This document shows, one piece after another, positions 5,263 through 62,889 of a stretch of 64,000 nt of DNA. The stretch spans positions 7,993 through 71,992 of the forward strand of contig JABHLG010000013.1 in the NCBI GenBank assembly GCA_018692915.1, read 5' to 3'. Position 1 is the first letter of the stretch; every line of letters begins with the position of its first letter. The notes under the pieces were generated by a model that searched no databases, was not told where the DNA came from, and saw only the letters and a program-made list of their open reading frames with translations. Position numbers and translations under genes: made by a program. The DNA comes from Candidatus Woesearchaeota archaeon (GTDB taxonomy: Archaea; Nanobdellota; Nanobdellia; UBA10117; JABICX01).

Positions 5263-5573
5263 TTAGCCTTTGACTACGACTAGCGGTTTTAGTTTAGCAA
5301 CCTTTTTCGCAAGTCCGGTTTTATGAAGAACACCAATCAGCTTTTGACGTGCAAAAGCTGGCAAAACACTTTCCTGCGCATTGCTTGGAAAATTAACCTT
5401 TTACAACCACTATTGGCTTCAACTGAGCTTTTTCTTACAGAAAAAGTTCGCAAAAAGAACGTTGTTTTTCCAAAACAACTGCTTCGCAAATGCAATTTAT
5501 CCTTTTACAACTACAAGAGGTTTCAATTTAGCAACCTTTTTCGCAAGTCCGGTTTTATGAAGAACATCAATAA
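5263..5573. repeat. Nested terminus-duplication locus at the rtcB 3' end
   Basis: On the plus strand the order is displaced copy 3 (5263-5339, encodes VLHKTGLAKKVAKLKPLVVVKG*) and a B-type hairpin element (5340-5392). Then come displaced copy 2 (5393-5422, LKPIVVVKG*), an A-type element (5423-5496) and the functional rtcB end (5497-5573). Confidence 0.85.
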
Positions 5574-6969
5574 CAATATCAACATCTTTGTATGCGCCAG
5601 GTGCTTCTTCTGCTAATCCTCTCCAATCATGTCCTTTTACTAAAATTCCTTGTTTTTCAAGTGAATCTTTAACAGATTGTCCTTTCCATTGTCGGTTTGC
5701 TTGATGGCGGCTCATTACTCTACCTGCGCCATGTGCTGCTGAGCCAAATGCTTTTTCCATGCTTGTTTTTGTTCCATGAAGAATATATGAACTAGTTCCC
5801 ATTGTTCCGCCAATCAAAACTGGCTGACCAATCTTTCGATACTTTTTTGGAACTTCTTTTAAGCCAGGGCCAAATGCTCGAGTTGCACCTTTTCTGTGTA
5901 CAATAAGCTCTTTTTCCTTGCCATTAACCATATGATTTTCTAGCTTACTATTATTGTGACCAATATCATAAAGTAAAGGTATATCTTTTTCTTTAAGTCC
6001 AAAAACCTTTGAAAATGCTTGTCTTCCAAGGTGACCAATTACTTGTCTGTTTGCAAAAGCTGCGTTAATTCCACAATTGACTGCTGAAAAATATTGTTGA
6101 CCTTCTTTACTTTTGAATGGTGCGCAAACAAGCTCTTTATCTGGCAATTTTATCTTGTATTTTCTAGCTGCTTCAGCTAAAAATGTAGTATAATCTGTTC
6201 CAATTTGATGGCCTAGAGCTCTAGAACCACAATGTAATGAAAATACAACTTGATCTTTTTCTAAGCCAAATGCTTTTGCTGCTTCTTTATCATATATTTT
6301 TTCAACATACTGAACTTCAAAATAATGATTTCCTGATCCCAGAGTTCCAACTTGTTTAAATTGTCTTTTCTTTGCTAGATCTGAGACAAACTTTGGATTT
6401 GCTCCTTTTATTCTTCCATTATTTTCAATATATTCTAAATCTTCTTTTAATCCATAGCCGCGCTCAACTGCAAATTCTGCTCCTTTAATAAGCACTTCGT
6501 CAATTTCTTCTTGATTTAGATGGATCTTTCCTTTGCTTCCCAAGCCTGCAGGAACAATCTGATATAATGCATCTAGAATTTCCTTTTGTTTCTTTACAAC
6601 ATCTTTCTTCTTAAGCGGAGTTGTATGCGTTCTAACTCCACAATTAATATCATAACCCACTCCTGCAAGTGCAATTACACCTGTTTTTGCGTCAAACGCC
6701 GCTACACCTCCAATACATACGCCGTAGCCAGGGTGCACATCACTCATTGCGTAACTCGATTCTTGAATTCCCGGTAAACTTGCGACATTTCTAATCTGTG
6801 GAAGTGCGGACCAAATTTTACCATCTTTAACATCCTTAACTAAATGTTGAATTATTTCTTTTGTACCAAAAATAAGTCCTGGCACATTCATTGCGCCTTT
6901 CTTCTTTAATGTCCATTCTAGTGGTGTTTCTTCCATTAATTCAAAATCGTCTATCTTGATTTTTCTCAT
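5497..6969 (-). CDS. rtcB: RNA-splicing ligase RtcB
   Basis: 490-aa contiguous RtcB (..SDVHPGYGVCIGGV.., GSGNHYFEVQ, ..HGAGR..). The ATG at 6969 is preferred over the GTG at 6978. Confidence 0.9.
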   Translation of the reverse strand: MRKIKIDDFELMEETPLEWTLKKKGAMNVPGLIFGTKEIIQHLVKDVKDGKIWSALPQIRNVASLPGIQESSYAMSDVHPGYGVCIGGVAAFDAKTGVIALAGVGYDINCGVRTHTTPLKKKDVVKKQKEILDALYQIVPAGLGSKGKIHLNQEEIDEVLIKGAEFAVERGYGLKEDLEYIENNGRIKGANPKFVSDLAKKRQFKQVGTLGSGNHYFEVQYVEKIYDKEAAKAFGLEKDQVVFSLHCGSRALGHQIGTDYTTFLAEAARKYKIKLPDKELVCAPFKSKEGQQYFSAVNCGINAAFANRQVIGHLGRQAFSKVFGLKEKDIPLLYDIGHNNSKLENHMVNGKEKELIVHRKGATRAFGPGLKEVPKKYRKIGQPVLIGGTMGTSSYILHGTKTSMEKAFGSAAHGAGRVMSRHQANRQWKGQSVKDSLEKQGILVKGHDWRGLAEEAPGAYKDVDIVIDVLHKTGLAKKVAKLKPLVVVKG

Positions 6970-6979
6970 GTTATTCACC

Positions 6980-7861
6980 CTATTTTTTGCTTTTAACCTT
7001 TTTGATTTGTTCTTCGGAGATTAAATCATTTGATAGCCACTTATCAAGGTTTTCTCGTCCATAGCTTGATAATTCATAATATATTCTTCCTTGTCCATTT
7101 ACTGCTTTTCTTATTTTGCTCTCGATTCCGAAGGTCTCTAACTCTTGCTTAACTCGGTCTAGATTTTCTTTTAGAATAGACATTAATCTAACGGTATATG
7201 GTTTCCGAGTTCGTGCTTTTTCTTTAATAATTTTATTACTGCCTTTTGAGAAATCCCAATTGTAATTAACATATGTCTCAATTGATTCTCTTAATCGTTT
7301 TTTCTTAAATGGATGAAGAAATCCGATTTCTTCTTCAAACTTAATTAGCTGATCTTTTCCATAAATACAAAGTGTAGCTGTGTCGCGATTACTTCTAGGT
7401 CTAATTGATGTACTAATATCAAAATGTTCTTTAAGCAAATTTGCTACTTGTTGCAATCCTTTATGATTTACACTGTCTGTACCGATTGCACGATTCTTTG
7501 CTTTTCTCACCCAAACCCAGCCTTCGCAATCAAAGAATGCTCTCAGCCAACGCGCAGCTTGCTCCTTATTCATATATTTCATAACATTCCAGTCTCTTGA
7601 ATGAAATGATCCATAATTATTTACAATATTAAAGTAAATATATTTAGAACCAACTGAACATCGATCCATATCTTTATTCATGTATGGAGTTATACCAAAC
7701 ACTTTCTCGAATTTCTCTTGAAAATCTAACAATAATTTCTTATTTGTATTTCTCAGACCAATATAGTAATACTTCTGTTTCTGTGTTTCATGATTACGAA
7801 TTACATATCCATCTGCACATAAATACGCATGCACTGCTGCAAAATCAGAACTATTCTCCAT
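6980..7861 (-). CDS. free-standing double-motif LAGLIDADG endonuclease-like protein
   Basis: Two LAGLIDADG-type motifs (AVHAYLCADGYV and RWLRAFFDCEGWV) followed by a C-terminal extension of about 100 aa. The stop lies 10 nt before the rtcB ATG. Confidence 0.7.
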   Translation of the reverse strand: MENSSDFAAVHAYLCADGYVIRNHETQKQKYYYIGLRNTNKKLLLDFQEKFEKVFGITPYMNKDMDRCSVGSKYIYFNIVNNYGSFHSRDWNVMKYMNKEQAARWLRAFFDCEGWVWVRKAKNRAIGTDSVNHKGLQQVANLLKEHFDISTSIRPRSNRDTATLCIYGKDQLIKFEEEIGFLHPFKKKRLRESIETYVNYNWDFSKGSNKIIKEKARTRKPYTVRLMSILKENLDRVKQELETFGIESKIRKAVNGQGRIYYELSSYGRENLDKWLSNDLISEEQIKKVKSKK

Positions 7862-7923
7862 TAAATAGCTAACATTCAGAACATAAAACTCTTGCGTTCT
7901 CCAGGATGTCTATCTGGCACAAT

Positions 7924-8391
7924 TTACAATTCTAACTCTAAAACTGTATCATATTCTTTAAAGTTATTCTTTTTGTAAAAATTAATTGCTAATTTGTTTT
8001 GATATGAAGCAGTTACTGTTGCTCTTTCTACTTTCTTTTTCTTGCACCATTTAATAAATTCGTTAATTAATTTCGTGCCAATGCCTTTATTTCTATATTC
8101 AGGTAAAACAATCATATTATCCATTTCTGCTAATTTACTAACAGCTCTATAAAACTCTGGCTTTGAAATACTACCTGCAAGATATCCAATAATCTTATCA
8201 CTATCAATAGCAACAATAGCAAAGCAATCGTCTTTTGTGATGCAATCTTTGAAATATTTATCTCCTTTTTTTGAAAAAGTCCAATCCATATTCAAGGTTT
8301 TATCATAATCTTTGTATTCCTTTTCAAATAATTTTAAATTAAGTTCTTTAATTACTTGCAAATCTGTTAATTTTGCTTCACGTATTTTCAT
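7924..8391 (-). CDS. GNAT family N-acetyltransferase
   Basis: VLPEYRNKGIGTKLINEFIKW acetyl-CoA binding motif. Confidence 0.7.
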   Translation of the reverse strand: MKIREAKLTDLQVIKELNLKLFEKEYKDYDKTLNMDWTFSKKGDKYFKDCITKDDCFAIVAIDSDKIIGYLAGSISKPEFYRAVSKLAEMDNMIVLPEYRNKGIGTKLINEFIKWCKKKKVERATVTASYQNKLAINFYKKNNFKEYDTVLELEL

Positions 8392-8723
8392 TCAACATAA
8401 ACTCTCTTTTTTCTATCAAATGGGGGGGTTGAAATTGCTAATAAAGTTAGCCCTTTCAGGTGTTTATAGTTTGTTACTTTTGGATAAAACACACAATCTC
8501 CTTTTTTAAGATGATGCTTTTTGCCTTCAATTACACAATCACCTTCACCATCTACTACATAATAAATACAATCACTCTCGGTATCATGTCCTAATTTTAT
8601 GTTATTACCAACTTTTCGAACTTTAGCTAAATTCAGAATATTTGTAGATATAATTGGTGTAGTCTTAGTATCTCCATGATCATTTTCCTTCAAATCCTTT
8701 GCACGAATTATCTGTTGTTTCAT
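8388..8723 (-). CDS. cupin domain protein
   Basis: GHDTESDCIYYVVDGEG...KKGDCVFYP two-motif cupin pattern. Confidence 0.55.
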   Translation of the reverse strand: MKQQIIRAKDLKENDHGDTKTTPIISTNILNLAKVRKVGNNIKLGHDTESDCIYYVVDGEGDCVIEGKKHHLKKGDCVFYPKVTNYKHLKGLTLLAISTPPFDRKKRVYVE

Positions 8724-8771
8724 AATATATACAAAACATTATTGTTTTAAATAGTATTTATTGTTTTAATT

Positions 8772-9155
8772 ATGAGTAACAGTGAAATACTTCAAAGAAT
8801 TGATGATACGAAGAAATATAGTCCTGTAGGACATAATTGTTGCACTTTTGCTTCTTTTGTTCTAGGAATAACTTCAGTTGAACTTTCATATAATAACACT
8901 ACGATTAAGCCAATTTCACACTATATGAAACAAGTATCAACTTTATGTAAAGCAGATCTAATTATTTATAAAAAAAATACGTTACTTGAACATCACATGG
9001 TAGTTCTTCCTGAAAATCCAGATTACTTTGTTCATAAAGCGGGTGATGATGAAATTATAAGTTATATTGATTTAGAAATTTTCCTGAACATGATAAAAGA
9101 TCATGATGGGTGTAAACCTGAATGGGGCGATCTTACTTTTTGGTCTATTAAATAA
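8772..9155 (+). CDS. hypothetical protein (possible Cys/His hydrolase fold)
   Basis: 127-aa ORF. A GHNCCTFASFVLG plus HHMVV pattern is the only hint. Confidence 0.3.
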   Translation: MSNSEILQRIDDTKKYSPVGHNCCTFASFVLGITSVELSYNNTTIKPISHYMKQVSTLCKADLIIYKKNTLLEHHMVVLPENPDYFVHKAGDDEIISYIDLEIFLNMIKDHDGCKPEWGDLTFWSIK

Positions 9156-9160
9156 AATAA

Positions 9161-9577
9161 TTAAACATCAACTATGCATTGAGCAATAAACTTTCCTGCT
9201 TTCTTTTCAACTTTGGCTTGGCTTAATGTAGCTGCTTTTACTTCAGTTCTAACTTCGGTCTTTGCAGTAATTGGTGAGCCCCAAGCAATTGCGCTTAAAG
9301 CTAGCATTCCATCTGTTGAAATTGTGACTTTAAATTTTGACAAAAACATCTGCTCTGCGTCTGCTTCACCCAAAGCCTGATTAAGAAAATTAATTAAAAG
9401 TTCAACTTCATTCTCAGCAGTCACTTCAAACTCTATTTTCTTTGTAGGTTTTATCTTTTTGATATTAGTCATAACCTCAAACATCGCTTTTGCAGATTCT
9501 TCAAAAGATTCTGCTAAAGTCTTACCTGTTCCTTTTACTCCAATATCTGCTCTATGTTCGAAGTGGCTAAATGTCAT
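9161..9577 (-). CDS. archease (RtcB activator)
   Basis: MTFSHFEHRADIGVKGTGKTLAESFEE... N-terminus typical of archease, 138 aa. Confidence 0.8.
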   Translation of the reverse strand: MTFSHFEHRADIGVKGTGKTLAESFEESAKAMFEVMTNIKKIKPTKKIEFEVTAENEVELLINFLNQALGEADAEQMFLSKFKVTISTDGMLALSAIAWGSPITAKTEVRTEVKAATLSQAKVEKKAGKFIAQCIVDV

Positions 9578-9650
9578 ATTATTTAAGAGAAATTTAGGTT
9601 TATATCCTTTTCCAAACGAATTCTTATAACGATTTCAAGATTTTTAATTA

Positions 9651-11291
9651 ATGCCACCTAGATTTATATTTGTAATTGGAGGAGTTATTTCAGGTCTTGG
9701 TAAGGGTATTACAACCGCATCAATAGGTAAATTACTCCAATATCAAGGATATTCAGTCACTGCAATTAAGATTGATCCGTATTTAAACCAAGATGCAGGG
9801 ACTATGCGACCAACAGAACATGGTGAAGTATGGGTAACTGAAGATGGTGGTGAAATTGATCAAGACCTAGGAAATTATGAAAGATTTCTTGGTATTGAAC
9901 TTCATAAAAACCATAATATAACTAGTGGCAGAGTATATTGGTCGATTCTAACAAAAGAGCGCAGAGGCGATTTCTTAGGTAAAACTATTCAGCCAATCCC
10001 ACAAGTAACTAATGAAATTAAGAAAATGATAACAGATATAGCAAAAGAAGATAATGCTGATTTTGTATTAATTGAAATTGGTGGGCAAGTTGGAGATTAT
10101 GAAAATGTTTTATTTTTAGAAGCTGCGCGCCAGATGAAAACGGATTTTCCAGTTATGTATATATTAGTTGGTTATCTTCCAATCCCAAAACACTTGGGTG
10201 AAATGAAAACAAAACCAATTCAACATGCAATTAATGCGCTTGGTCAGCATAATATTTTGCCAGATTTAGTTGTATGCAGAGCTGAAAAAATTGTTGATGA
10301 TGTAAGAAGAACAAAAATCGCTCAGTCTTGCGGTATTAAAAGATCATGTGTTATCTCAAATCCCGATGTTGATAATATTTATAAAATTCCACTTATTCTT
10401 GATGACCAGAATGTTTGTCAAAATATTTTAGAATCTTTTGGATTAAAATATAACAAACACTGTGAGGGATTAAAAAACTGGAGAGCGTTTATTCAAAATA
10501 TAAATAAGAATACTAAAGTTAAAGTAGGTATAATTGGAAAATATTTTGATATTGGTGATTTTAATTTAGTTGACTCATATATTTCAGTTATTGAGGCTGT
10601 AAAACATGCTGCTTGGAATAATAATTGTTTTGCAGAAATTATATGGATTGATTCAAAAAAATATGAGGATGATCCAAAGTCAATAAAAGAACTTGATAAT
10701 ATGGATTGTATAATTGTTCCGGGTGGTTTTGGAAAATCTGGAATTGAAGGTAAGATATCAACTGCTAAATACTGTAGAGAAAACAATATACCTTACTTAG
10801 GTCTTTGTCTTGGGTTACAGATAAGTGTTATTGAATTTGCGCGTAATGTATGCAATCTTAAAAATGCAAACTCTGAGGAATTTAATCCCGAAACAGCTCA
10901 TCCAGTTGTTGCTATAATTAATGAGCAAAAGAAAATCTTAAAAGAAAAAGGCTATGGTGCAACTATGCGACTGGGTGGCTGGCCAGCAATTCTAAAAAAA
11001 GGTACAAAAATATATCATCTTTATTCAAAACAAGAACAAATATCTGAGCGACATCGACACAGATATGAAATAAATCCTAAATATATTGAAACTTTAGAAA
11101 AATATGGTTTTGTGTTCTCAGGTCAGAATCCTGAAGCAAATATTATGGAATTTGGAGAAAATCCGAACTGTGATTATTTTGTAGGCACTCAAGCTCACCC
11201 TGAATTTAAATCTCGTCCAATGAAACCTGCACCGCTTTTTGATGGCTTAATCAAAGCTGCTCTAAATAAAACTCAGAAGAAATTAAGCTAA
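9651..11291 (+). CDS. pyrG: CTP synthase
   Basis: 546 aa with GGVISGLGKGI, a C-terminal glutamine amidotransferase domain, LGLCLGLQ and HRHRYE. Confidence 0.95.
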   Translation: MPPRFIFVIGGVISGLGKGITTASIGKLLQYQGYSVTAIKIDPYLNQDAGTMRPTEHGEVWVTEDGGEIDQDLGNYERFLGIELHKNHNITSGRVYWSILTKERRGDFLGKTIQPIPQVTNEIKKMITDIAKEDNADFVLIEIGGQVGDYENVLFLEAARQMKTDFPVMYILVGYLPIPKHLGEMKTKPIQHAINALGQHNILPDLVVCRAEKIVDDVRRTKIAQSCGIKRSCVISNPDVDNIYKIPLILDDQNVCQNILESFGLKYNKHCEGLKNWRAFIQNINKNTKVKVGIIGKYFDIGDFNLVDSYISVIEAVKHAAWNNNCFAEIIWIDSKKYEDDPKSIKELDNMDCIIVPGGFGKSGIEGKISTAKYCRENNIPYLGLCLGLQISVIEFARNVCNLKNANSEEFNPETAHPVVAIINEQKKILKEKGYGATMRLGGWPAILKKGTKIYHLYSKQEQISERHRHRYEINPKYIETLEKYGFVFSGQNPEANIMEFGENPNCDYFVGTQAHPEFKSRPMKPAPLFDGLIKAALNKTQKKLS

Positions 11292-12326
11292 TTTCCAAAT
11301 TCTTTTCTTGAATTCTTCATAATCTTTTTCACGGACAGCTCCACCTGCAGCAGGTCTATGCCCCCCTGCATTTGCGCCTTTAAGGCCTTTAACGGCTTTT
11401 TCAAGTAAGTCGTTAACTGCTCGCTTAGAAGTATGATTACGTGCATTAATTGATACCCATCCATTTTGACGCCGAGTTATTAAGATTGTATCATTTGGAT
11501 GTGCGATTGCGATTAACGTAGATACTGTTGAACCAATTCTACCTGAAGGGTCTATCTCATATATCCAAGTATCTTTCTTATGCTCTGCTTTTTCTTCAAA
11601 CTTACTAATCCAAAACTCAATCTCATTTTTAAGTTCATTATATAATTTACTAAAATTGGATTTTAAAATATCTTGATACTTCTTTGCTTCAAGAACAACT
11701 TCTAATGCTCGCTCAACTTGTGGTGGCTCAATTTGTTTTCCTGCATCAATAATACATCCTGCATTAATCAATTCTTTTTTTGATGTTTTATATTTCTTGT
11801 AAACTTTATTCAAAAAAGTCTGCCATTTATCATCAGTAATATCTGTTAATGTGCCTATCGCAGCTAGCCAATCAAATTCTGAAACATCTGTAACTTCTGA
11901 AAATAAGTCAAATGCCATCTTAGAAGTGCAATAATCTGACCCATCTAAATCTTTCCTTAAGTATTGCGCTTTTATAAAAATAATTTTATCTGAATTCAAA
12001 TCTTTGTATATTTTATGATGGTCAACAACCAAAATTGCATCAAATAATGATGTATTTTCTGTAAAATCAGAATACTGATCTGCAGAAAAGTCTAGGAAAA
12101 TAATTTTATTTATACCTTCGTCTTTTAATCCTTTTAATCTTGCAGGATTAAAATTACTATGGCTACAAGGGATGTATCGCTCTACTTTATGTCCTAATTT
12201 TTCTAAAGATTTAATTGTAATTGTTGCCGAGCAAATGCCATCAGAATCTGAATCATAAAAGATTGCTATATGGTCTTTTGAATTTAGTTCCTTTACAAAT
12301 TTTGAGAACTGAACTTTGGGTTTCAT
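11283..12326 (-). CDS. DHH/DHHA1 phosphoesterase (RecJ/NrnA-like)
   Basis: DSDSDGICSA, VVDHH and GGHRPAAGG motifs. Confidence 0.7.
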   Translation of the reverse strand: MKPKVQFSKFVKELNSKDHIAIFYDSDSDGICSATITIKSLEKLGHKVERYIPCSHSNFNPARLKGLKDEGINKIIFLDFSADQYSDFTENTSLFDAILVVDHHKIYKDLNSDKIIFIKAQYLRKDLDGSDYCTSKMAFDLFSEVTDVSEFDWLAAIGTLTDITDDKWQTFLNKVYKKYKTSKKELINAGCIIDAGKQIEPPQVERALEVVLEAKKYQDILKSNFSKLYNELKNEIEFWISKFEEKAEHKKDTWIYEIDPSGRIGSTVSTLIAIAHPNDTILITRRQNGWVSINARNHTSKRAVNDLLEKAVKGLKGANAGGHRPAAGGAVREKDYEEFKKRIWKLA

Positions 12327-12403
12327 TTTTATATGTAATACAATCTTTTTTAAGAATTGCGAATTTTGGAAAACCTATTTATTTAACCATATACTTAATT
12401 AAT

Positions 12404-13177
12404 ATGGTCTTAGAAGCAATTATATCTCCAAGCAAAGTTGAGCAGAATATCTTATGGGCCATACCTCTTGGTTTTATGTTATCAGTAGTAGGATTAGCAA
12501 TTGGTTTGTTTCTCTTTCCAAAAGATGCAAGCTTAGTAGGTATTTTATTTACAACGCTTGCAGGAGTTCCATTTTTACGAGGAATTCTAACAATTGAAGA
12601 AGTTAAAGATGAAAAGATACATGCAATAATTCAATTCTTAAGGCGAAACAAACGAGTTATTAAAATATACTTCATGTTTTTCTTAGGTGTAACTTTAAGT
12701 TATATTGTTTTATATTTTATTTTACCTACAGATATTGTAGCACAAATGTTTAGCAAGCAAATTTCAATATTCCCTGGTGCAACACCCACAGGTATGTTTT
12801 TAGGTAACGCATTATTTCAACGGATTGTAATTAATAATCTCAAGATAGCACTTATTGCACTTATTCTTTCATTTCTTTATGGTGCTGGAGCAATTATGAT
12901 TCTTACATGGAACGCATCTGCTTTAGCTATTTTCTTAGTTTCTTTGCGAAGTTTCAGAGCTATTGCATTTACACTTCCTCATGCACTTCTTGAATTTTCT
13001 GGATTTTTCATAGCAGCAGTTGCAGGTGGTCTGATTTCAATAGCTGCAGAAAGAGATAAATTATATAGCAAAAATTTTCAAGATATTCTCACAGACGGTC
13101 TTCTTTTCTTCTTAGTAGCTGTTCTAGTTATTGTTATTGCTGCTGTTGTCGAAGTCACAATTGGTGTTCTAGCTTAA
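12404..13177 (+). CDS. SpoIIM-like (DUF95) integral membrane protein
   Basis: Multi-TM protein with LPHALLEFSGFFIAAVAGG. Start trimmed to ATG 12404 because the track ORF overlaps the DHH gene. Confidence 0.5.
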   Translation: MVLEAIISPSKVEQNILWAIPLGFMLSVVGLAIGLFLFPKDASLVGILFTTLAGVPFLRGILTIEEVKDEKIHAIIQFLRRNKRVIKIYFMFFLGVTLSYIVLYFILPTDIVAQMFSKQISIFPGATPTGMFLGNALFQRIVINNLKIALIALILSFLYGAGAIMILTWNASALAIFLVSLRSFRAIAFTLPHALLEFSGFFIAAVAGGLISIAAERDKLYSKNFQDILTDGLLFFLVAVLVIVIAAVVEVTIGVLA

Positions 13178-14278
13178 ATCTGAGATTATTAATTGATAAC
13201 CTTCATATCCTAATTTAGGTTTATAATTTCCTTCGCGGTATTGTTCTTCATCCACTAAAGAGTATCCATTATCATCACCAACATAATCGTAAACACTTAC
13301 ACCAATAGCACCTGCATTATATGCTTCAAAGACATTTGAATAAATATACTCGCGCTGAAGTTCTTCATTTACCCATTGATCACATTCTTCAATTCCTTGT
13401 TCACAGTTTTGCCAATTATTAATTATTCCACCACCTTCGCGCCTTACTAAACATTGGCAAGTAGATGCTCCAGTTTCAGTAACCCAAACAGGTAAACTGC
13501 TAAATTCTATTGTTTTTTGCACAGAAGCAAGAATATAATTACTTTGTGGACCTGCACCAACTCCTACAGGATAAACTTGAATTCCAACCCAATCAGAATC
13601 ATACTTTATTGCATCTAAGAAATTATCCCATGTAGCAACATCTGTATCTAGATCATCAAAAGCTAAACGTGTTCCAACTTTAGCATCAGAGTCACCACGT
13701 TTAACTGCAGCAGATATGTTTTTGTATAATTCAACTTTTTCCAAATCAATATAATTTGGATCGTCTTCAGGATTATTCCAATGAAGTGGATTCATTTCAT
13801 TTCCAATCATCCAATAATCAATATCATAATGCTTAGCAGCTTCTTCTGCAAACTCTTCAAGCTCAGCAATAAATTCTTCATCAGTTTCTTCATAATCAGA
13901 TAACCAATTCGGACTACCTCTCCAACTATCCCACCAATTTATAAGAATCGCTTTAGGGGGCATATTATACTTAGTATAAATTTCTAAGTCTTTATCAGGA
14001 ATACTAAAATCATAAATATCATTTTCATGCTCAACTTCTGCCCAAAAAAGATGAACGGTGAGATGATTTACACCTAATTCACTTATTTTTTCTATATCTT
14101 CTTCTTGCATAGGTATTTGATAAACGATATCAAAAATAAATTCTTCATCTTCGGAAACTTCTTCTAAATCATCTTGCTGAGCCATTGAAAAATATGAAAG
14201 ATTATTCATCCCAAAAAATCCAATTAATAATATTCCAATAAGAGCAATTATAATAATTACTGACTTAGAATATTTCAT
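13169..14278 (-). CDS. secreted TIM-barrel glycoside hydrolase-like protein (clan GH-A-like)
   Basis: N-terminal TM/signal segment. IGNEMNP and VWVTETG look like the acid/base and nucleophile motifs. Confidence 0.4.
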   Translation of the reverse strand: MKYSKSVIIIIALIGILLIGFFGMNNLSYFSMAQQDDLEEVSEDEEFIFDIVYQIPMQEEDIEKISELGVNHLTVHLFWAEVEHENDIYDFSIPDKDLEIYTKYNMPPKAILINWWDSWRGSPNWLSDYEETDEEFIAELEEFAEEAAKHYDIDYWMIGNEMNPLHWNNPEDDPNYIDLEKVELYKNISAAVKRGDSDAKVGTRLAFDDLDTDVATWDNFLDAIKYDSDWVGIQVYPVGVGAGPQSNYILASVQKTIEFSSLPVWVTETGASTCQCLVRREGGGIINNWQNCEQGIEECDQWVNEELQREYIYSNVFEAYNAGAIGVSVYDYVGDDNGYSLVDEEQYREGNYKPKLGYEGYQLIISDLS

Positions 14279-14312
14279 ATTTTAATTATATTTCAAGATA
14301 TATATAATTTTA

Positions 14313-14330
14313 GAAAAGCTATTTAAATTA
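14313..14330 (+). promoter_or_regulatory. BRE/TATA-like promoter (gaaaagctatttaaatta)
   Basis: Purine-rich BRE followed by a TATA-like box about 25 nt upstream of position 14350. That position is the displaced 5' copy of tRNA-Ser, not the mature 5' end. Confidence 0.45.
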
Positions 14331-14349
14331 AATACCGAACTTTTAATCA

Positions 14350-14412
14350 CGTCGGGGCAGAGCTTAAAACGTAATGCGTTTTAGCTGGTCCCAACTCGTA
14401 AACTCGTCGGGG
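14350..14412. repeat. Terminus-duplication locus at the tRNA-Ser 5' end (E-type element)
   Basis: cgtcgggg (14350-14357), then a 47-nt hairpin element cagagcttaaaacgtaatgcgttttagctgg... (14358-14404), then cgtcgggg (14405-14412, the acceptor stem). Confidence 0.7.
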
Positions 14413-14489
14413 TGGCGCAATCTGGTACCGCGCAGCCCTGGAAAGGCTGTTTCCTCACGGATATCTGGGTTCAAATCCCAGTCCCGACG
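14406..14489 (+). tRNA. tRNA-Ser(GGA), class II, no internal intron
   Basis: Hand fold. Acceptor gtcgggg/tcccgac, anticodon stem cagcc/ggctg, loop ctGGAaa. Long variable arm and T arm ctggg-ttcaaat-cccag. Confidence 0.85.
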
Positions 14490-14493
14490 CTTA

Positions 14494-14510
14494 GAAAAGC
14501 TTTATAAATC
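14494..14510 (+). promoter_or_regulatory. BRE/TATA-like promoter (gaaaagctttataaatc) for rpl37ae
   Basis: Same motif as at 14313. The TATA box lies about 26 nt upstream of ATG 14530, which implies a leaderless mRNA. Confidence 0.45.
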
Positions 14511-14529
14511 CACTTCATAGATTAAAATA

Positions 14530-14745
14530 ATGGCACTTAAAAAACTAGGATCAGCAGGTCGTTTTGGATCAAGGTATGGTAGAAAGATTCGTCAGAAAGT
14601 TATAGCTGTTGAAAAAGTATTATATGGCAAGCACAAGTGTCCATACTGTAAAAAAAATGGAGTAAAAAGAGTATCTAATGGTATATGGTATTGCAATAAA
14701 TGTAATTCAAAATATGCTGGAAAGGCTTATGATAATAAATTATAA
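14530..14745 (+). CDS. rpl37ae: 50S ribosomal protein eL43 (L37Ae)
   Basis: GSAGRFGSRYG..., CPYC...CNKC zinc ribbon, 71 aa. Confidence 0.85.
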   Translation: MALKKLGSAGRFGSRYGRKIRQKVIAVEKVLYGKHKCPYCKKNGVKRVSNGIWYCNKCNSKYAGKAYDNKL

Positions 14746-14882
14746 TGGCATATAAATGTTTTAATTGTCAAAGAGAAATCGATGCTAAAAATGTTGAAAG
14801 AAGAGTAATTTGTCCATATTGTGGTTCAAGAATAATTTCAAAATCAAGACCTCCTGTAATAAAAAAAGTTAAAGCGAGGTAA
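14745..14882 (+). CDS. rpoP: DNA-directed RNA polymerase subunit P (Rpo12)
   Basis: Own translation gives MAYKCFNCQREIDAKNVERRVICPYCGSRIISKSRPPVIKKVKAR, 45 aa with CxxC...CxxC. TAATG overlap with rpl37ae. Too short for the ORF track. Confidence 0.7.
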   Translation: MAYKCFNCQREIDAKNVERRVICPYCGSRIISKSRPPVIKKVKAR

Positions 14883-14886
14883 TCTT

Positions 14887-15120
14887 ATGATAACATCCAC
14901 AATTAAAATTGCTGGTGAAAAAGCACTTTTAGATGCGTGCGTTGCTGCGCTTGAACCCGAACAACAATTCAAAACTAAGCGAGCAAATTATTCGCTCAAA
15001 AAAAGTAAGGACTTAATAATCACTGTGGAAGCACAAGACATAACTGCATTCCGTGCAGTTATTAATTCAATAACAGGTTTACTTGGAATTGTAAACCAAA
15101 ATTGGGAGAAAATACAATGA
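14887..15120 (+). CDS. KEOPS subunit Pcc1-like protein
   Basis: 77 aa with ..LIITVEAQDITAFRAVINSITGLLGIV, matching the Pcc1/CTAG pattern. Sits in the usual rpl37ae-rpoP-pfdB neighbourhood. Confidence 0.55.
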   Translation: MITSTIKIAGEKALLDACVAALEPEQQFKTKRANYSLKKSKDLIITVEAQDITAFRAVINSITGLLGIVNQNWEKIQ

Positions 15121-15446
15121 CTAAAGAAGCAGAAATTCAAGAAAAGATAATGCAAATGCAATCACTTCAGCAAAGACTTCAGGTTTTCGCTGCACAAAAA
15201 CAACAATTTCAGTTACAACAAATTGAAATTGAAAACGCACTTAAAGAAGTTTCTAAAACAAAAAAACCAGTTTATTCTTTAGTTGGTGAAATTATGATTG
15301 AAAAAACAGTTTCTTCTATCAAAAAAGACCTTGAAATAAAAAAGAAAGAAATTGATATCAAAGTTAAAAACATAGAGATTCAAGAAAAGAAAACACGAAA
15401 AAGTGCGGATGAATTACAAAAAGAAGTTACTAAAGTATTGAAATGA
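15117..15446 (+). CDS. pfdB: prefoldin subunit beta
   Basis: Coiled-coil / beta-hairpin / coiled-coil layout (..KPVYSLVGEIMIEKT..). ATG at 15117. Confidence 0.75.
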   Translation: MTKEAEIQEKIMQMQSLQQRLQVFAAQKQQFQLQQIEIENALKEVSKTKKPVYSLVGEIMIEKTVSSIKKDLEIKKKEIDIKVKNIEIQEKKTRKSADELQKEVTKVLK

Positions 15447-15697
15447 GTAATATAAATGAAGTTGTTGAAGTAGTAAAAGAACTATGTACTGAGAAATCAA
15501 TACCTAAAAACGTACGCTCAGTCCTTGAAGAAATACAAGAACTTCTATTAGATAATCACAAAGAACTTGCTGTAAAAGTAAATTCTGCAAGCCAAATGAT
15601 TGAAAATATTTCATTAGACCCAAATATTAGCTCATTTGCACGAACCCAAATATGGGAATTATCCTCAATTTTAGAAGATTTAATTGACAATAATTAA
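15443..15697 (+). CDS. UPF0147 family protein
   Basis: IPKNVRSVLEEI...ISLDPNISSFARTQIWELSSILE matches the archaeal UPF0147 pattern. Confidence 0.6.
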   Translation: MSNINEVVEVVKELCTEKSIPKNVRSVLEEIQELLLDNHKELAVKVNSASQMIENISLDPNISSFARTQIWELSSILEDLIDNN

Positions 15698-15799
15698 ATC
15701 AAATTAAGAAACATTTATATCTACCTATCTATTTTAGTATATTAATTGTTTTAAACCCAAAACAATAAGCATAAACATCATAATTAAGGTGAAATAATA

Positions 15800-16204
15800 A
15801 TGGCAATATTCGATAAAATAGGTTCTGTTTTCAAGAGAGACAGTGGCGATATAGAAATTTCAGATGATTATGTTGAATTAGAAGCAGATGTAACTGGCTC
15901 AAAATCAAAAATTACAATCCGACCATTTACATTAGACAGCTTTGACAGCATAAAACCAATTCTTGACGCACTAAGAGAAGGATATACAATAGCTTTAATC
16001 AACATGGCTCCACTACGTGAGAAAGACCAAGTGACTCTAAAACGTGCAATTGATAAAATCAAGAAAACTCTTGATGCAAATGAAGGCGATATTGCAGGTG
16101 TAGGGGATAATTGGTTAATTGCAACACCAAGTTTTGCAAGCGTTTATCGTGGCGGACACAACGAAGGACCAGAAGAACAACAAAGCACTGAAGTCTACGA
16201 TTAA
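15800..16204 (+). CDS. sepF: cell division protein SepF-like
   Basis: ITIRPFTLDSFDSIKPILDALREGYTIALINM...IAGVGDNWLIATP (DUF552 core). Confidence 0.7.
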   Translation: MAIFDKIGSVFKRDSGDIEISDDYVELEADVTGSKSKITIRPFTLDSFDSIKPILDALREGYTIALINMAPLREKDQVTLKRAIDKIKKTLDANEGDIAGVGDNWLIATPSFASVYRGGHNEGPEEQQSTEVYD

Positions 16205-16279
16205 TCTTTCTTTTTTATTTATTTTTTAGTTAATTTTAAATACAACTATCTATATACTTTATAGAATAGGTGATGTTTA

Positions 16280-55304: not shown

Positions 55305-55351
55305 AGAATGTAATATAGTCTTAAGTATATATATTTTTTGTGTTAGTTATT

Positions 55352-55441
55352 ACTGACGAAGTCTGTTCCACTGACGAAGTTAGTGATACTGACGAAGTCT
55401 GTTCCACTGACGAAGTTAGTGATACTGACGAAGTTAGTTGT
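55352..55441. repeat. Tandem repeat, five 18-bp units (actgacgaagtctgttcc / actgacgaagttagtgat alternating)
   Basis: Read directly. Units start at 55352, 55370, 55388, 55406 and 55424. The last unit overlaps the stop of the 1167-aa ORF. Confidence 0.9.
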
Positions 55442-61614: not shown

Positions 61615-61910
61615 AAATCCCTAACTTTCTTCCTCAGAACTCAAGATATGTTCGTCAGAAAATTAACATAATATATTAATAAATAATATTATATTTCTTA
61701 ATTAAAATTAAAGTCCTCTTCCTGTTGCACAAACTTCAGGTGAAGTTTGATCACACCTTTGCTCCTCAGAATCCAAATTATATTCGTCGCAAAATAATGC
61801 CATTGGTTAACCAATTACTAAATTGAAAATCTCTAAATTTTCATTAAAAATCAATATAACATATTAATATACACATTTAACTCTATTCAAAATTAAAGTC
61901 CTCTTCCTGT
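61615..61910. repeat. Terminus-duplication locus at the 3' end of gene 61893-62534, with two tandem C-type units
   Basis: 22-bp perfect repeat aaaattaaagtcctcttcctgt at 61704-61725 and 61889-61910. C-type cores are ...cttcctcagaactcaagatatgttcgtcagaaaat (61629-61663) and ...tgctcctcagaatccaaattatattcgtcgcaaaat (61760-61794). Confidence 0.75.
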
Positions 61911-62534
61911 AGCTGTAATTGTTGCACTTAGAGCTCCTGTTTGATTTGCATCTGTTGGGATAATTAATTGTATTTCAACATTAATTGAATTATTAGCTTG
62001 ATTTGCATCAAGAACAGAACAAATAATATTTGCTGAAGTGTTAATATCTGTAAAACTTGTGTCAACTATATCTGCACAGGAATCTGATTCATTTTGTTCG
62101 ATTTTCCATCTAAAAGCAGGGTCTGAACCACCAACAAAATCTTCAGCAGTTTTATTTGCTGTAAGATTTAACTCAATTAAATCTCCACCAATATTTTCAA
62201 GAACTAAAGATTGACTTGTAGCTGTCCAATTTCCCCCAGTTACTGATTTCGCATCTGTATCTAATGTAGCATTTTCAAAACCACCTGTAACTGAGCCAGT
62301 TCCCCAATCTATTGCTGCTGACGTCCAATTAATTGCTGTAACAGATTCTATTGTTACTGTAGCGGTTGCATTTGAATCTGATGTAACAAAACCTGTAAAT
62401 CCCATACTATCTCCTAAAAAGAAATCAACCATAGACAAACTAATAGCTACAACTAACAAAAGAGCTAATAGCTCATTTGATATATTAAATCCTTTTCTTT
62501 TGCTAGACTGTCTCTTCCTGCTCACCATTTTCAA
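61893..62534 (-). CDS. secreted protein with pilin-like (class III-like) N-terminus
   Basis: KRKGFNISNELLALLLVVAISL N-terminus followed by FTGFVTSDS. Thr/Asn-rich with many sequons. Confidence 0.4.
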   Translation of the reverse strand: MKMVSRKRQSSKRKGFNISNELLALLLVVAISLSMVDFFLGDSMGFTGFVTSDSNATATVTIESVTAINWTSAAIDWGTGSVTGGFENATLDTDAKSVTGGNWTATSQSLVLENIGGDLIELNLTANKTAEDFVGGSDPAFRWKIEQNESDSCADIVDTSFTDINTSANIICSVLDANQANNSINVEIQLIIPTDANQTGALSATITATGRGL

Positions 62535-62727
62535 CTGCTCCTGTATCTAAATTATCTTCATTTGATTCAATTACTAAATTAATTGTAGCTTCAGAATCAC
62601 CTTGCTTTACTACACTTTCTGATTCCTGACTGCTAATATTTGCGTTCATTGAATATAAAAAGTAAATTATTACTATAAGTAAAATTAACACAATTGGATA
62701 TAAATACTTCTTGTCTTTAATATTCAT
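62503..62727 (-). CDS. small TM protein with acidic tail
   Basis: 74-aa ORF only. Confidence 0.3.
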   Translation of the reverse strand: MNIKDKKYLYPIVLILLIVIIYFLYSMNANISSQESESVVKQGDSEATINLVIESNEDNLDTGAVENGEQEETV

Positions 62728-62780
62728 TAATTATAATATATCTTATTCTATATAAACTTTATGTGAATTTTAATAGAATT

Positions 62781-62889
62781 AATTAAAATTACTAACATCC
62801 TGTTCCTGTGTAATCCCTTCTTTTAAAAAGAAGGTTTTACAATCCCAAGAAATAAATTATAATTAAAATTACTAACATCCTGTTCCTGT
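62781..62889. repeat. Terminus-duplication locus at the 3' end of gene 62872-63735 (D-type, tRNA-intron-like element)
   Basis: Perfect 29-bp direct repeat aattaaaattactaacatcctgttcctgt (62781-62809 and 62861-62889). It flanks the 51-nt element gtaatcccttcttttaaaaagaaggttttacaatcccaagaaataaattat. Confidence 0.9.

Follow-up and report, generated by a model that had tools for sequence, protein, structure and literature searches.

MITEs, REP and REPIN sequences and Rickettsia palindromic elements are short, non-coding, hairpin-forming repeats that occur in high copy number. With e14 and phage 21 in icd, and with the archaeal tRNA-targeting integrases, a gene receives a replacement end and its native end is displaced. 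C-terminal duplications are also made by mitochondrial mobile ORFs. Archaeal tRNA fragments have been linked to integrative elements (PMC3293823). Near-identical introns in different archaeal tRNA genes and positions imply mobility of these introns (Fujishima et al. 2010, as summarized in Yoshihisa 2014, PMC4090602), the mechanism of their transposition being unknown according to the latter account (PMC4090602). For small structured-RNA genes, a study from 2018 states that they duplicate, rearrange and overlap the 3'-ends of protein genes, often in antisense, and that they show circular permutation, suggesting circularisation and re-insertion (PMC6009581).

The window, i.e. the whole stretch of DNA analysed here, comprises 64,000 nt of the assembly GCA_018692915.1 of Candidatus Woesearchaeota archaeon (contig JABHLG010000013.1, positions 7,993-71,992, forward strand). 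About 20 small hairpin-headed elements were found in this marine DPANN archaeon. They belong to the same sequence families as the host's own tRNA introns, a finding relevant to the mechanism by which tRNA introns of archaea are mobilised. In-frame insertion into proteins, as seen at 19484-19519 of the window and in the L016 methyltransferase, resembles that of the Rickettsia palindromic elements. In contrast to these and to MITEs and REP/REPIN sequences, the elements lack terminal inverted repeats, carry a hairpin at one end only, are accompanied by duplications of 0-75 nt instead of a fixed length, and double as tRNA introns. As with integrative elements and homing-endonuclease genes, a new terminal copy keeps the gene intact, the displaced native terminus persists as a fossil, and differences are of the synonymous kind; the LAGLIDADG gene at the 5'-end of rtcB is such a case in the window. 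The inserts described here differ in being gene-less, 47-155 nt long and drawn from few sequence families with many targets.

Archaeal bulge-helix-bulge tRNA introns are comparable in that the introns of tRNA-Arg, tRNA-Gly and tRNA-Thr, as well as a new D-loop tRNA intron in lineage L103, share the element heads. Unlike these introns, the elements also reside at the ends of protein genes, between genes of an operon and, in frame, within coding sequences, mostly in antisense and often with a target duplication. Family C has a CUGA D-box, a sequence close to a C-box, and a terminal stem that covaries. It has the appearance of a C/D-box or K-turn RNA and in this respect resembles the C/D RNAs featured in PMC6009581. 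The relevant sections of that paper, however, concern hyperthermophilic Crenarchaeota, make no mention of gene-terminus duplication and present elements that have canonical C/D boxes or terminal inverted repeats, features absent from families A, B, D and E. No paper describing an element class with this combination was found, in agreement with what the first-pass annotation had supposed.

Families and loci of the hairpin-headed elements

The shared motif families that had been claimed are real. Across 13 hairpin heads 96.5% of the stem is paired, and four of its nine base pairs show compensatory changes. A covariance model built from the heads (R1) matches gene-end, in-coding-sequence and intron copies alike and gave no matches in bacterial control loci. 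Compensatory changes were also found in the C-type closing stem, and both stems indicate that the element structure is under selection. A single polarity had been reported for all elements. This holds for families A, B, D and E, where all 13 elements located downstream of or within coding sequences are antisense and all 4 located in 5' leaders are sense. Family C is an exception: it runs in the direction of the adjacent genes at 42270, 61762 and 61630 but in antisense in L016. Since family C breaks the rule and selection on the transcribed strand could also explain polarity, the argument from polarity to a purely mechanical rule at the DNA level is weaker than originally put.

Eleven loci had been described as a succession of displaced gene end, element (50-160 nt) and intact gene end. 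This layout was recovered in all eleven, with elements of 50-155 nt, within a few bases of the positions given before:

5263-5337, minus strand: displaced native rtcB 3'-end, copy T1 (25 codons and stop), 88% identity to 5497-5571
5338-5392, plus strand: B element, first rtcB insertion, hairpin head adjoining T1 (R1 match 5337-5372, 36.9 bits)
5393-5425, minus strand: third, partial rtcB end copy encoding LKPIVVVKG*, as read from the sequence
5426-5496, plus strand: A element, second (nested) rtcB insertion (R1 match 5424-5461, 44 bits)
5497-5571, minus strand: functional rtcB 3'-end, continuous with the gene (ORF 5497-6969 encodes RtcB)
14350-14412, plus strand: tRNA-Ser 5' locus; displaced CGTCGGGG, 47-nt E-type element in sense, CGTCGGGG running into the tRNA
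17175-17335, plus strand: methyltransferase 3' locus; gene-side copy 17175-17222, antisense B element 17223-17283, displaced native copy 17284-17335
30901-31040, plus strand: ABC permease 3' locus; displaced end 30901-30926, composite B-like element, real end 31016-31040
33801-33924, minus strand: ABC ATPase 5' locus; real start 33801-33836, E-type element in sense 33837-33884, displaced start 33885-33924
39812-39926, plus strand: PAC2 3' locus; displaced end 39812-39841, antisense B element 39842-39896 (R1 match 42.3 bits), real end 39897-39926
42233-42367, plus strand: DUF167 locus; 93-nt insert with a C-type unit, between exact 21-nt repeats (42233-42253 and 42347-42367)
47149-47283, plus strand: MiaB-like 5' locus; displaced start 47149-47185, A element in sense 47186-47246 (R1 match 37.1 bits), real start from 47247
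50744-50867, plus strand: tfs 3' locus; 72-nt hairpin element, in antisense relative to tfs, between exact 26-nt repeats
61630-61913, minus strand: first surface-protein locus; 30-nt duplication 61699-61728 / 61884-61913 (90% identity) around 155 nt containing a C-type unit (61762-61789); second C-type unit at 61630-61657
62780-62889, plus strand: second surface-protein locus; D-type element of 50 nt that runs antisense to the gene, lies between exact 30-nt repeats and aligns with the D-type tRNA introns

An unbiased scan of the whole window for local direct repeats (at least 18 of 20 matches, spacing 30-320 nt) yielded 10 repeats, compared to 0-1 per shuffle (mean about 0.1 in 20 shuffles). 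Seven of the 10 are loci listed above. The repeats of ABC permease, PAC2 and MiaB are recognisable at the codon level, and the tRNA-Ser repeat amounts to only 8 exact nt. Duplication length varies widely (0-75 nt), as had been noted. Boundaries lying exactly at the start or stop codon were found in the diverged pairs, where similarity past the coding sequence would be undetectable anyway, but not in the exact duplications, which end between about 6 nt inside the ancestral coding sequence (DUF167) and 12 nt beyond the stop codon.

Contrary to what had been stated, not all copies are flanked by a duplication. Several have none or at most 4 nt, namely the element at 1578-1687, a further copy between the S17 and L14 genes just left of the window, the in-frame copies, including one inside a coding sequence of L016 (2368-2409), and the tRNA introns. 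Three intron-containing tRNA genes missed by ARAGORN were found with the Rfam tRNA model, and their inserts carry motif A or D:

1578-1687, plus strand: B-like element separating the stop codon of L2 from the start codon of S19, in antisense relative to the ribosomal-protein operon (R1 match 1578-1612, 40.3 bits)
19484-19519, minus strand: in-frame antisense hairpin element within the coding sequence 18611-19579, encoding NNVFREPFSEKGSW (R1 match 42.6 bits)
19655-19716, plus strand: D-type intron of tRNA-Gly (anticodon UCC), gene 19618-19750 (Rfam tRNA match 45.4 bits, 62-nt insert; alignment with family D)
35940-35998, plus strand: A-type intron of tRNA-Arg(CCU), gene 35865-36036 (Rfam tRNA match; R1 match 41 bits)
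39719-39778, plus strand: D-type intron of tRNA-Thr(CGU), gene 39684-39811 (Rfam tRNA match 57.9 bits, 57-nt insert)

The occurrence of families A/B and D as introns of tRNA-Arg(CCU), tRNA-Gly and tRNA-Thr had been overlooked in the first-pass annotation, as had the B-like element at 1578-1687, which has no clear duplication and belongs to 108 nt missing from L016. In three lineages the A/B hairpin head begins exactly at the 5'-end of the tRNA-Arg intron; L101 and L103 carry A/B-type introns at the same position. The whole tRNA-Thr gene including its intron has 88% identity in L101. Lineage-specific copies were detected in L016, L017, L101 and L103, among them a 5' tRNA copy with a 14-nt duplication.

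Inserted DNA and the two copies of the gene ends

Orthologous empty sites were found in relatives for rtcB, methyltransferase, ABC permease, ABC ATPase, PAC2, DUF167, MiaB, tfs and tRNA-Ser, the comparison being confined to these loci because no relative covers the two surface-protein loci. Element and one repeat are missing from L016 at rtcB and methyltransferase, from L101/L103 at ABC permease, ABC ATPase and PAC2, from L101 at DUF167, and from L105 at MiaB and tfs; in L016 no element lies on the 5' side of tRNA-Ser. Thus, the elements are inserted DNA.

The rtcB locus had been regarded as a single insertion and actually consists of two nested insertions with three gene-end copies. Its B element is missing from L016, L014 and L015. 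The last 30 nt of T1 and the sequence downstream agree with the true rtcB end of L016 (28/30), whose site is empty. The partial copy differs from the other two nearly exclusively at synonymous positions, and a sharp breakpoint was found within the rtcB repeat. In L017 the rtcB end carries a related A element with an exact 45-nt duplication. The structure is base-for-base identical in nine contigs that stem from separate samples and assembly programs (ENA, two NCBI MAGs, JGI) and is therefore not an assembly artefact; at this locus the view that the duplications are no assembly joins was borne out. At the 5'-end of rtcB the same architecture surrounds a 1.4-kb insert carrying a LAGLIDADG endonuclease.

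The gene-side copy of the methyltransferase reads 8 codons into the element, and the native stop is retained in the displaced copy; 109 nt of this locus are missing from L016. Relative to L016, two changes in 48 nt were counted in the displaced copy and 8 synonymous ones in the gene-side copy. Both ABC permease copies encode VDALRHE*, and L101 has a single-copy end whose downstream sequence agrees with the displaced side. The ABC ATPase copies show 4 synonymous versus 1 non-synonymous differences and are single in L101 and L103. KDISYLG* is encoded by both PAC2 copies, with synonymous differences including Ser AGC/TCT, and the displaced end abuts tRNA-Thr. In DUF167 the displaced copy still overlaps the beginning of the following gene, as in the native state, and L101 has this overlapping arrangement without the insert.

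Judged from its contiguity with the native flank and from its matches to close relatives (methyltransferase 46/48; MiaB 36/38, against the real start at the empty site of L105; rtcB 28/30), the displaced copy can be identified as the native gene end. Pooled over the repeat pairs, 40.5 synonymous and 12.5 non-synonymous differences were counted (pS 0.67 versus pN 0.059, p = 2e-16). This nearly all-synonymous divergence rules out decay of a duplicate and argues that the two copies derive from different functional alleles. Genes with diverged repeats are 6-12 points further from the L016 lineage than their own flanks. At all three polarisable loci the foreign-looking copy adjoins the element tail.

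Origin of the elements and their duplications

We consider it probable that the elements are non-autonomous, intron-family mobile elements whose insertion takes place at the DNA level and duplicates 0-75 nt of the target, followed by reshuffling through recombination between lineages. Copies of small non-coding hairpin-headed sequences would enter the chromosome with 0-75 nt of the target duplicated and, as the genome is extremely compact, almost any insertion would strike a gene. Survivors would be those near a gene end, where the duplicated target rebuilds a complete end and the old end remains as a short fossil, those at tRNA positions from which the splicing endonuclease can remove them, and those that keep the reading frame within a protein region tolerating them or fall exactly between two genes. 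Filled alleles and their flanks would then recombine with alleles of related lineages, so that gene-side and fossil copies often stem from different functional alleles with synonymous differences. We infer both this survival filter and recombination as the source of the mosaics. The antisense orientation behind or inside coding sequences and the sense orientation in 5' leaders and tRNAs may reflect selection against sense RNA that is recognised or cut by processing enzymes; family C does not obey this rule.

The duplications could instead arise on import of a foreign allele, without transposition of the element. DNA fragments ending at the hairpin of the element would pair homologously on the gene side, tail and gene end being transferred as one piece, and an illegitimate join on the hairpin side, a few to 75 nt inside the resident gene, would displace the resident end, as in homology-facilitated illegitimate recombination or homing-like repair. 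This fits the tail facing the gene and the hairpin facing the displaced native copy in 13/13 and 4/4 cases of families A, B, D and E, the gene-side copy being the diverged partner in rtcB, methyltransferase and MiaB (over the whole gene in the latter two) with an L016-like displaced copy, and the ABC operon, which lies between two elements whose tails point inward, the native ends being on the outer sides. The LAGLIDADG insert of the same architecture and the A family striking rtcB in a second lineage also agree with it. We nevertheless regard it as unlikely: it leaves unexplained how near-identical heads spread to more than 12 genes, tRNA loops and coding-sequence interiors in one genome, it requires conspecific donors for the exact duplications (tfs, surface gene, L017 rtcB), it accommodates the identical inner 48 nt of the rtcB repeat only with a crossover at the edge, and no nuclease or DNA-uptake system is known to cut at the hairpin. 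Remnants of integrase-type site-specific elements, with the repeats as att cores over gene ends and the cargo later deleted, are very unlikely, although integrase systems do produce such a series of replacement end, element and displaced native end, in which the core is identical and the distal part is recoded synonymously (rtcB, methyltransferase). Only 47-155 nt lie between the repeats, sharply defined heads are common to all loci, at least 12 target sequences are unrelated, no integrase was found among the Pfam-scanned window proteins, and nested, in-coding-sequence and repeat-less copies do not fit.

Equally improbable are bulge-helix-bulge introns or processed segments of mRNAs and pre-tRNAs, from which EndA and RtcB would remove the element and one repeat, both ends being translated and maintained by selection. 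The families are genuine tRNA introns, both copies keep frame and peptide, the methyltransferase gene-side copy has no stop of its own, and the window encodes RtcB and archease. However, elements behind coding sequences are antisense to the mRNA, direct repeats are unable to pair with each other, and recombination with empty-site alleles can account for the displaced copies. EndA excision of gene-end copies, as previously suggested, failed to find support: a 3+4+3 bp bulge-helix-bulge in the repeat register occurs at 1/13 repeat pairs, in an AT-rich self-complementary stretch. That terminator or regulatory hairpins with slippage duplications, or assembly artefacts from strain mixtures, explain the data is largely refuted and least credible. 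Most elements lie behind genes, T-runs occur on the gene-sense strand and the data are metagenomic; yet nine independent assemblies agree at rtcB, the same families occur within tRNAs and coding sequences, presence and absence vary among close relatives, and the repeats bear synonymous, allele-like differences. A single head fits a terminator-like pattern, and the earlier statement that the elements are not ordinary terminators stands.

Neither the window proteins that were scanned against Pfam nor the precomputed annotation covering the rtcB region include a transposase, integrase, reverse transcriptase or HUH nuclease. To our knowledge, target duplications of 0-75 nt without terminal inverted repeats match no characterised transposase. 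Altogether, the first observation is partly confirmed, being real but over-generalised, and its interpretation is partly supported. Plain insertion followed by random recombination would place the foreign copy at the tail side half the time, and it was seen there in 3/3 cases; the element may travel together with the adjacent gene end. A weak model match at 37254-37296, inside a coding sequence, is in sense orientation.

Repeated gene ends and empty sites in relatives

The arrangement described in the first-pass annotation, in which an extra copy of a gene end (the displaced copy), an element and a second copy continuous with the gene (the gene-side copy) follow one another, was present at all 11 listed loci. 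A scan of the whole window for direct repeats with at least 18 of 20 matches and a spacing of 30-320 nt returned 10 local repeats as compared to 0-1 in each of 20 shuffles. Seven of these were listed loci, one was a coding tandem repeat at 55348, and two were borderline. The copies at the ABC permease, PAC2 and MiaB genes have diverged too far for such a scan, but their duplication is clear by codons, e.g. KDISYLG* is encoded by each of the two PAC2 copies. Pfam agreed with the earlier gene calls (RtcB, methyltransferase, MacB/FtsX permease, ABC ATPase, PAC2, DUF167, MiaB-like radical SAM, and TFS). The hairpin-headed families A, B, D and E and the separate family C together amount to ~20 copies in 64 kb, or ~1 element per 3 kb; the G+C content of the window is 29-35%, and its proteins are assigned in databases to Candidatus Woesearchaeota (DPANN archaea).

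At rtcB the listed architecture stood, whereas the single insertion did not, as two nested insertions were found. In gene orientation this locus reads gene-X-Y'-(A element)-Y''-(B element)-X-Y-downstream, and the last 10 codons are present three times. Contigs with an identical RtcB came from marine metagenomes and two NCBI MAGs. The same 430 nt at rtcB were identical in nine contigs from different samples and assemblers, which rules out an assembly artefact at this locus. Matches to a covariance model of the A/B hairpin heads (the element ends facing the displaced copy) at rtcB, between L2 and S19, and between S17 and L14 have counterparts at unchanged relative positions in two contigs, one from ENA and one of an NCBI MAG. 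Since these structures are identical or recurrent in independent contigs, assembly joins are excluded at all three sites. Genome contigs searched with RtcB yielded only one relative, which was truncated. The observation is real and interesting, although the claims that the gene end is always duplicated and the polarity always the same need trimming.

Orthologous empty sites in relatives, proposed earlier as a check, were found at rtcB, the methyltransferase, MiaB, tfs, the ABC permease, the ABC ATPase, PAC2, and DUF167. Database locus L016, part of a 167-kb contig, is collinear with window positions 69-19142 at 85-95% identity. Exactly 234 nt at rtcB and 109 nt at the methyltransferase gene have no counterpart there, each corresponding to the element(s) plus one repeat, and 108 nt between L2 and S19 are missing as well. 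In L016, the true end of rtcB and the sequence following it match the displaced copy of the window. This site is also empty in loci L014 and L015, and gene maps of two further relatives leave just 27 and 70 nt behind rtcB. At the methyltransferase gene the displaced copy differs from L016 at 2 of 48 nt and the gene-side copy at 8, all synonymous. Locus L105, which belongs to the L016 lineage, has no element at MiaB or tfs, and the displaced MiaB start is identical to its real start at 36 of 38 positions. The more distant loci L101 and L103 (72-78% identical) are empty at the ABC permease, ABC ATPase and PAC2 genes, and L101 also at DUF167, where the displaced copy in the window keeps the overlapping stop/start arrangement of the relative. 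It is well supported that the elements are insertions of intron-family elements and that the displaced gene end is the native one.

The relatives hold copies of their own, which shows that the element family is active and polymorphic among close lineages.

Element copies found in relatives
L016: composite B+C element at the UPF0147 gene, with an imperfect ~30-nt duplication
L016: in-frame copy within its methyltransferase
L016: 62-nt tRNA-Ser intron, absent from the window tRNA-Ser
L017: A element at rtcB, with an exact 45-nt duplication
L101: sense copy ahead of tRNA-Thr(UGU); 14 nt of the tRNA 5' end are duplicated
L103: extra A/B-type intron in the tRNA-Thr D-loop

Several further structures were noted in the window.

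Further insertions, rearrangements and repeats
2676-2935, minus strand: 260-nt insertion exactly at the L23 start codon in the ribosomal-protein operon, with ATGA flanks and a complete 87-aa ORF without a Pfam match; absent in L016 and in the contig map of database protein P0004
8728-9165: 438-nt insertion separating the archease gene from the cupin gene, two genes that overlap in L016; it has a 127-aa ORF on the opposite strand, without a Pfam match
13169-14490 (L016 6364-6560): tRNA-Ser, inverted relative to its flanks in comparison with L016 and adjoining a 369-aa secreted glycosidase-like ORF that is missing in L016, which has an intron in place of the 5' element
30925-31015: B-like element at the ABC permease, with the 3' arm of its hairpin split by a hairpin-rich insert of ~50 nt; by its sequence it looks like a nested insertion
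31016-33924: three-gene ABC transporter operon between two elements with their tails (the ends facing the gene body) inward and a displaced native terminus outside each; as a whole it may be an imported allele
55348-55440: 18/36-nt tandem repeat (ACTGACGAAGT...) at the 5' end and just upstream of a 1167-aa surface-protein gene

tRNA introns, hairpin heads and polarity

ARAGORN reported one tRNA in the window and Rfam four. Three of them carry long anticodon-loop inserts and score 40.6-57.9 bits against the Rfam tRNA model only if ~57-100 nt inserts are skipped.

tRNAs with long anticodon-loop inserts
19618-19750: tRNA-Gly, insert with motif D
35865-36036: tRNA-Arg(CCU), insert with motif A
39684-39811: tRNA-Thr, insert with motif D

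The surface-protein D element located between exact 30-nt repeats aligns with the D-type tRNA introns over its first ~40 nt. In three lineages an A/B-type intron occupies the same position of tRNA-Arg, and its head starts exactly at the intron 5'-end. Hence, the elements belong to tRNA-intron families, a relationship overlooked in the first-pass annotation. Removal of the insert would restore a functional tRNA, as is typical of archaeal bulge-helix-bulge (BHB) introns, at the tRNA copies only. In tRNA-Thr, the anticodon stem and a 6-bp intron helix frame a junction of 7/7-nt geometry in which only 2 of 4 central pairs form, and the tRNA-Gly junction, read by eye, has a 4-bp central helix. A relaxed BHB geometry of these introns is plausible from the predicted pairings. 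tRNA-Arg(CCU) additionally contains a second insert of ~33 nt in its D-loop region (35886-35920), a hairpin of the form GGTTC...GAACC that is not of A/B type; L103 has a different insert at this site and L101 none.

When aligned, 13 A/B heads taken from introns, coding sequences and gene ends share a 9-bp stem with 96.5% pairing. The stem is closed by C-G in 7 copies and by G-C in 5, and compensatory changes occur at three other pairs. A G.U wobble at pair 4 was present in 8 of the 13 heads and on the element-sense strand only, which indicates that this strand folds better than its complement. The head model detected nine strong copies in the window and further copies in L001 (a locus extending to the left of the window), L016, L017, L101 and L103, and had no match in the bacterial control loci. 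The L016 lineage has ~2 matches to this model in 35 kb, as against ~1 element per 3 kb in the lineage of the window. All strong matches span model positions 1-36, so that heads are never truncated, while the tails differ.

The proposed uniform polarity held for the A/B/D/tfs-type copies. Behind or inside coding sequences 13 out of 13 were antisense, relatives included, and all four copies in 5' leaders (MiaB, ABC ATPase, tRNA-Ser, and tRNA-Thr of L101) were sense, as intron copies necessarily are. It did not hold for family C, whose copies are in sense orientation at three sites of the window but antisense in L016. A weak head-model match at 37254-37296 (E = 0.004) is sense within a coding sequence. 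In absolute terms, 13 copies lie on the plus and 3 on the minus strand. A replication effect was rejected as the cause of this bias because orientation relative to the gene accounts better for the exceptions. Selection may explain the polarity if sense intron-family RNA is bound or cut by RNA-processing enzymes, an effect that would do no damage in a tRNA or 5' leader but would be deleterious behind a coding sequence. Alternatively, a candidate mechanistic reading is that the tail and the neighboring gene end travel together.

The four copies of family C share an invariant YGACGAA-N13-TTCTGAGGA inside a 5-bp closing stem. Pairing in this stem is complete (100%), and 3 of its 5 pairs have undergone compensatory changes (UUCGC/GCGAA, UUUGC/GCAAA, UUUCU/AGAAA, and UUUUC/GAAAA). 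A second hairpin downstream of this unit also covaries. Compared to the C/D box consensus (RUGAUGA for the C box, CUGA for the D box), one mismatch occurs in the C box and CUGA is located 3 nt from the stem; C'/D' boxes were not seen, and Rfam gave no match. The 11 bases ahead of a conserved TT vary in a guide-like manner. In sequence and predicted fold, family C resembles a single-guide C/D-box or K-turn RNA.

Duplication boundaries and probable exchange of gene ends

Duplication length was as variable as first described, with values of 0, 3-4, 8, 21, 26, 30, 37, 45, 48, and 75 nt. A duplication is not always present, however. At the L2/S19 and S17/L14 copies no more than 3-4 nt are repeated, and at copies in coding sequences and introns no duplication was visible. 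The S17/L14 copy, an antisense B-type element at L001 18382-18446 (~1.5 kb left of the window start), separates genes that overlap in L016 and extends S17 by QNGGNQ*. Both ribosomal-protein copies share a common module, GGAGGNAACCAATAA-GNTTTGCGAAGC, and each has its hairpin directly ahead of the ATG of the next gene.

Exact duplications were found at tfs (26 nt), DUF167 (21 nt), a surface gene (30 nt), tRNA-Ser (8 nt), and rtcB of L017 (45 nt), and are presumably recent. The reported coincidence of boundaries with start or stop codons applies to diverged pairs only, in which non-coding similarity would no longer show. Exact duplications end elsewhere. Their edges range from ~6 nt within the ancestral coding sequence of DUF167, an ORF that now terminates within the insert, and 1 nt inside the stop codon (tfs) to 2, 9, and 12 nt past the stop. 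Some variable bases separate the conserved tail from the codon, e.g. GGAGGT ahead of the start of the ABC ATPase; they may be a remnant of the untranslated region of an incoming allele.

Nei-Gojobori counting over seven repeat pairs gave 40.5 synonymous and 12.5 non-synonymous differences (pS 0.67, pN 0.059; binomial test, p = 2e-16). The amino acid differs at six codons only, and several of the non-synonymous counts are multi-step changes between codons of one amino acid. Plain target duplication followed by neutral decay is thereby ruled out, since the copies differ mainly at synonymous sites (~11-fold enrichment) and the relatives agree with the displaced one. At rtcB, the two copies agree in the inner 15 codons, 7 of which are different in L016, whereas in the last 10 codons the displaced copy equals L016 at 5 codons where the gene-side copy deviates. 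This pattern marks a sharp recombination breakpoint within the repeat. Because the displaced copy and the downstream DNA are still homologous to element-free gene ends, the displaced copy can be overwritten by functional sequence of relatives, and the element itself restricts the reach of such tracts. Genes with diverged repeats are also further from the L016 lineage than their flanks.

Nucleotide identity to the L016 lineage
methyltransferase: 79%, flanks 87-93%
MiaB: 81%, flanks 88-91%
rtcB: 85%, flanks 88-94%

We infer that survival of an insertion requires an intact gene copy and that alleles were shuffled afterwards. Diversity-generating retroelements do not account for the recoding, as adenine-specific changes were not seen on reading the rtcB and methyltransferase pairs.

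Directly upstream of rtcB, a 1431-nt insertion that is absent in L016 (6946-8376, minus strand) contains genes for a GNAT acetyltransferase and a free-standing LAGLIDADG endonuclease. GNAT opens with nine codons that are similar to the native start of rtcB, and over its first 250 nt rtcB is only 65-79% identical to L016 as compared to ~92% further on. On this comparison it resembles a homing-endonuclease insertion that involved co-conversion and left the 5' gene end displaced. The layout is that of the elements, which suggests that double-strand-break repair with co-conversion makes displaced gene ends in this genome.

Origin of the elements and known mobile systems

As core explanation we consider it likely that mobile tRNA-intron families were caught at off-target sites. 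Exact target duplications of 21-45 nt are signatures of fresh insertion; together with a presence that differs among lineages 85-95% identical and with the density of the elements they point to DNA-level integration with defined junctions. No transposase, reverse transcriptase or integrase domain was detected by Pfam among 20 window proteins, nor any nuclease besides the LAGLIDADG protein. The 369-aa ORF beside tRNA-Ser was rejected as insertion enzyme, having the look of a secreted glycosidase and not of a recombinase. Target-primed reverse transcription yields 5' truncation. Complete heads with variable tails, the lack of inverted termini and duplications of 0-75 nt disfavor both this mechanism and a classical transposase, and would be consistent with break repair, with template switching, or with hairpin-ended fragments that recombine at one end. 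Splicing of the mRNA across the repeats was not supported. A scan of the whole sequence for BHB motifs gave thousands of matches and is far too permissive in AT-rich DNA, and a perfect 3+4+3 bp BHB in register with the repeats on the gene strand was absent at 12 of 13 pairs, the single exception lying within a self-complementary TAATTA stretch. Moreover, elements behind coding sequences are antisense.

A more far-reaching reading, which we regard as unlikely, is that excised, probably circularized BHB-intron and K-turn RNAs return to the chromosome as copies made by reverse transcription or template switching, either at breaks or where gene transcripts end, and act as SINE-like 'retro-introns'. 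The exact start of heads at the intron 5'-end, the AGAGGT end shared by the MiaB copy and the tRNA-Arg intron, and the variable duplication length, as in target-primed insertion, would fit such copying. The two rtcB A copies are possibly circularly permuted, the window copy ending in TGCAAT and that of L017 starting with ATTGCA, although this may instead be a terminal inverted repeat. Against it stand the absence of 5'-truncated heads and of a reverse transcriptase among the scanned window proteins. If true, the gene-end copies with duplications would be off-target footprints of intron creation, the missing mechanism of archaeal intron gain.

The mobile tRNA-intron families favored here differ from each of the following known systems. 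MITEs have terminal inverted repeats and a fixed target-site duplication, in contrast to one hairpin at one end and variable tails and duplications, and no autonomous partner with a transposase was found among the scanned window proteins. Palindromic elements derived from IS200/IS605 and REP/RAYT elements act as single strands, to which the element-sense wobble would fit, but have sub-terminal hairpins and no target duplication, whereas at our elements the target is often duplicated and a hairpin is present at one end only. Direct repeats over a gene end of which the element supplies the distal part recall integrase-type elements. Such att-core-like repeats comprise a 48-nt identical core plus 27 recoded nt at rtcB and an 18-nt core plus ~30 recoded nt at the methyltransferase gene. 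However, those elements carry an integrase or cargo and use one target per type, while here inserts of 47-155 nt have the same heads at no fewer than 12 unrelated targets. Integron attC sites form cassette arrays beside an integrase; no integrase was seen, and the genes next to our elements belong to the syntenic core (rtcB, tfs, ribosomal proteins), with an order that is conserved in relatives. Intrinsic terminators consist of a G+C-rich stem followed by a T-run, and only the head at 5338-5360 was flagged as such in positions 1-20000. Copies in tRNAs, 5' leaders and coding sequences likewise bear out the earlier view that these are not ordinary terminators. Exact 16-mers of motifs A and D searched in IMG/VR gave chance-like matches and unrelated tandem hairpins of giant-virus bins, so that a viral or plasmid origin was discarded. 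These hairpins, GAACTTTTT-loop-AAAAAGTTC followed by GCAAAAAG in IMG/VR contigs L027, L041, L054, L059 and L067 (some in giant-virus bins), are A-head-like and probably unrelated to, or convergent with, the A head.

The spread of archaeal tRNA introns between genes is an acknowledged open question, and the intron families described here also sit at non-tRNA sites. According to Yoshihisa's 2014 review (PMC4090602), Thermoproteales tRNA introns appear transposed by a mechanism stated to be unknown. Lui et al. (PMC6009581) describe mobile C/D box sRNA genes, sometimes circularly permuted, that overlap 3'-ends of protein genes, often in antisense, as well as a MITE-like sRNA element, and Sugahara et al. 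(PMC3293823) describe tRNA fragments left behind by an integrating element. In the portions of the literature covered by our search, no report was found of intron-family elements at protein-gene ends with duplicated termini. The elements are small structured-RNA-related mobile elements and not a wholly new category.

An ultra-compact DPANN genome tolerates a heavy load of mobile DNA, its gene ends being 'healed' by duplication, and displaced ends are fossils that record allele replacement between lineages. For annotation the elements are a source of error: ORFs are falsely extended, short upstream ORFs arise, tRNAs are missed, and gene fragments are spuriously taken as 'duplicated'. The longest PAC2 ORF (39897-40733) has 278 aa, a TTG start and an N-terminal extension of ~33 aa that is absent from all homologues; its true start is probably the Met of MIEQIDRMEI.
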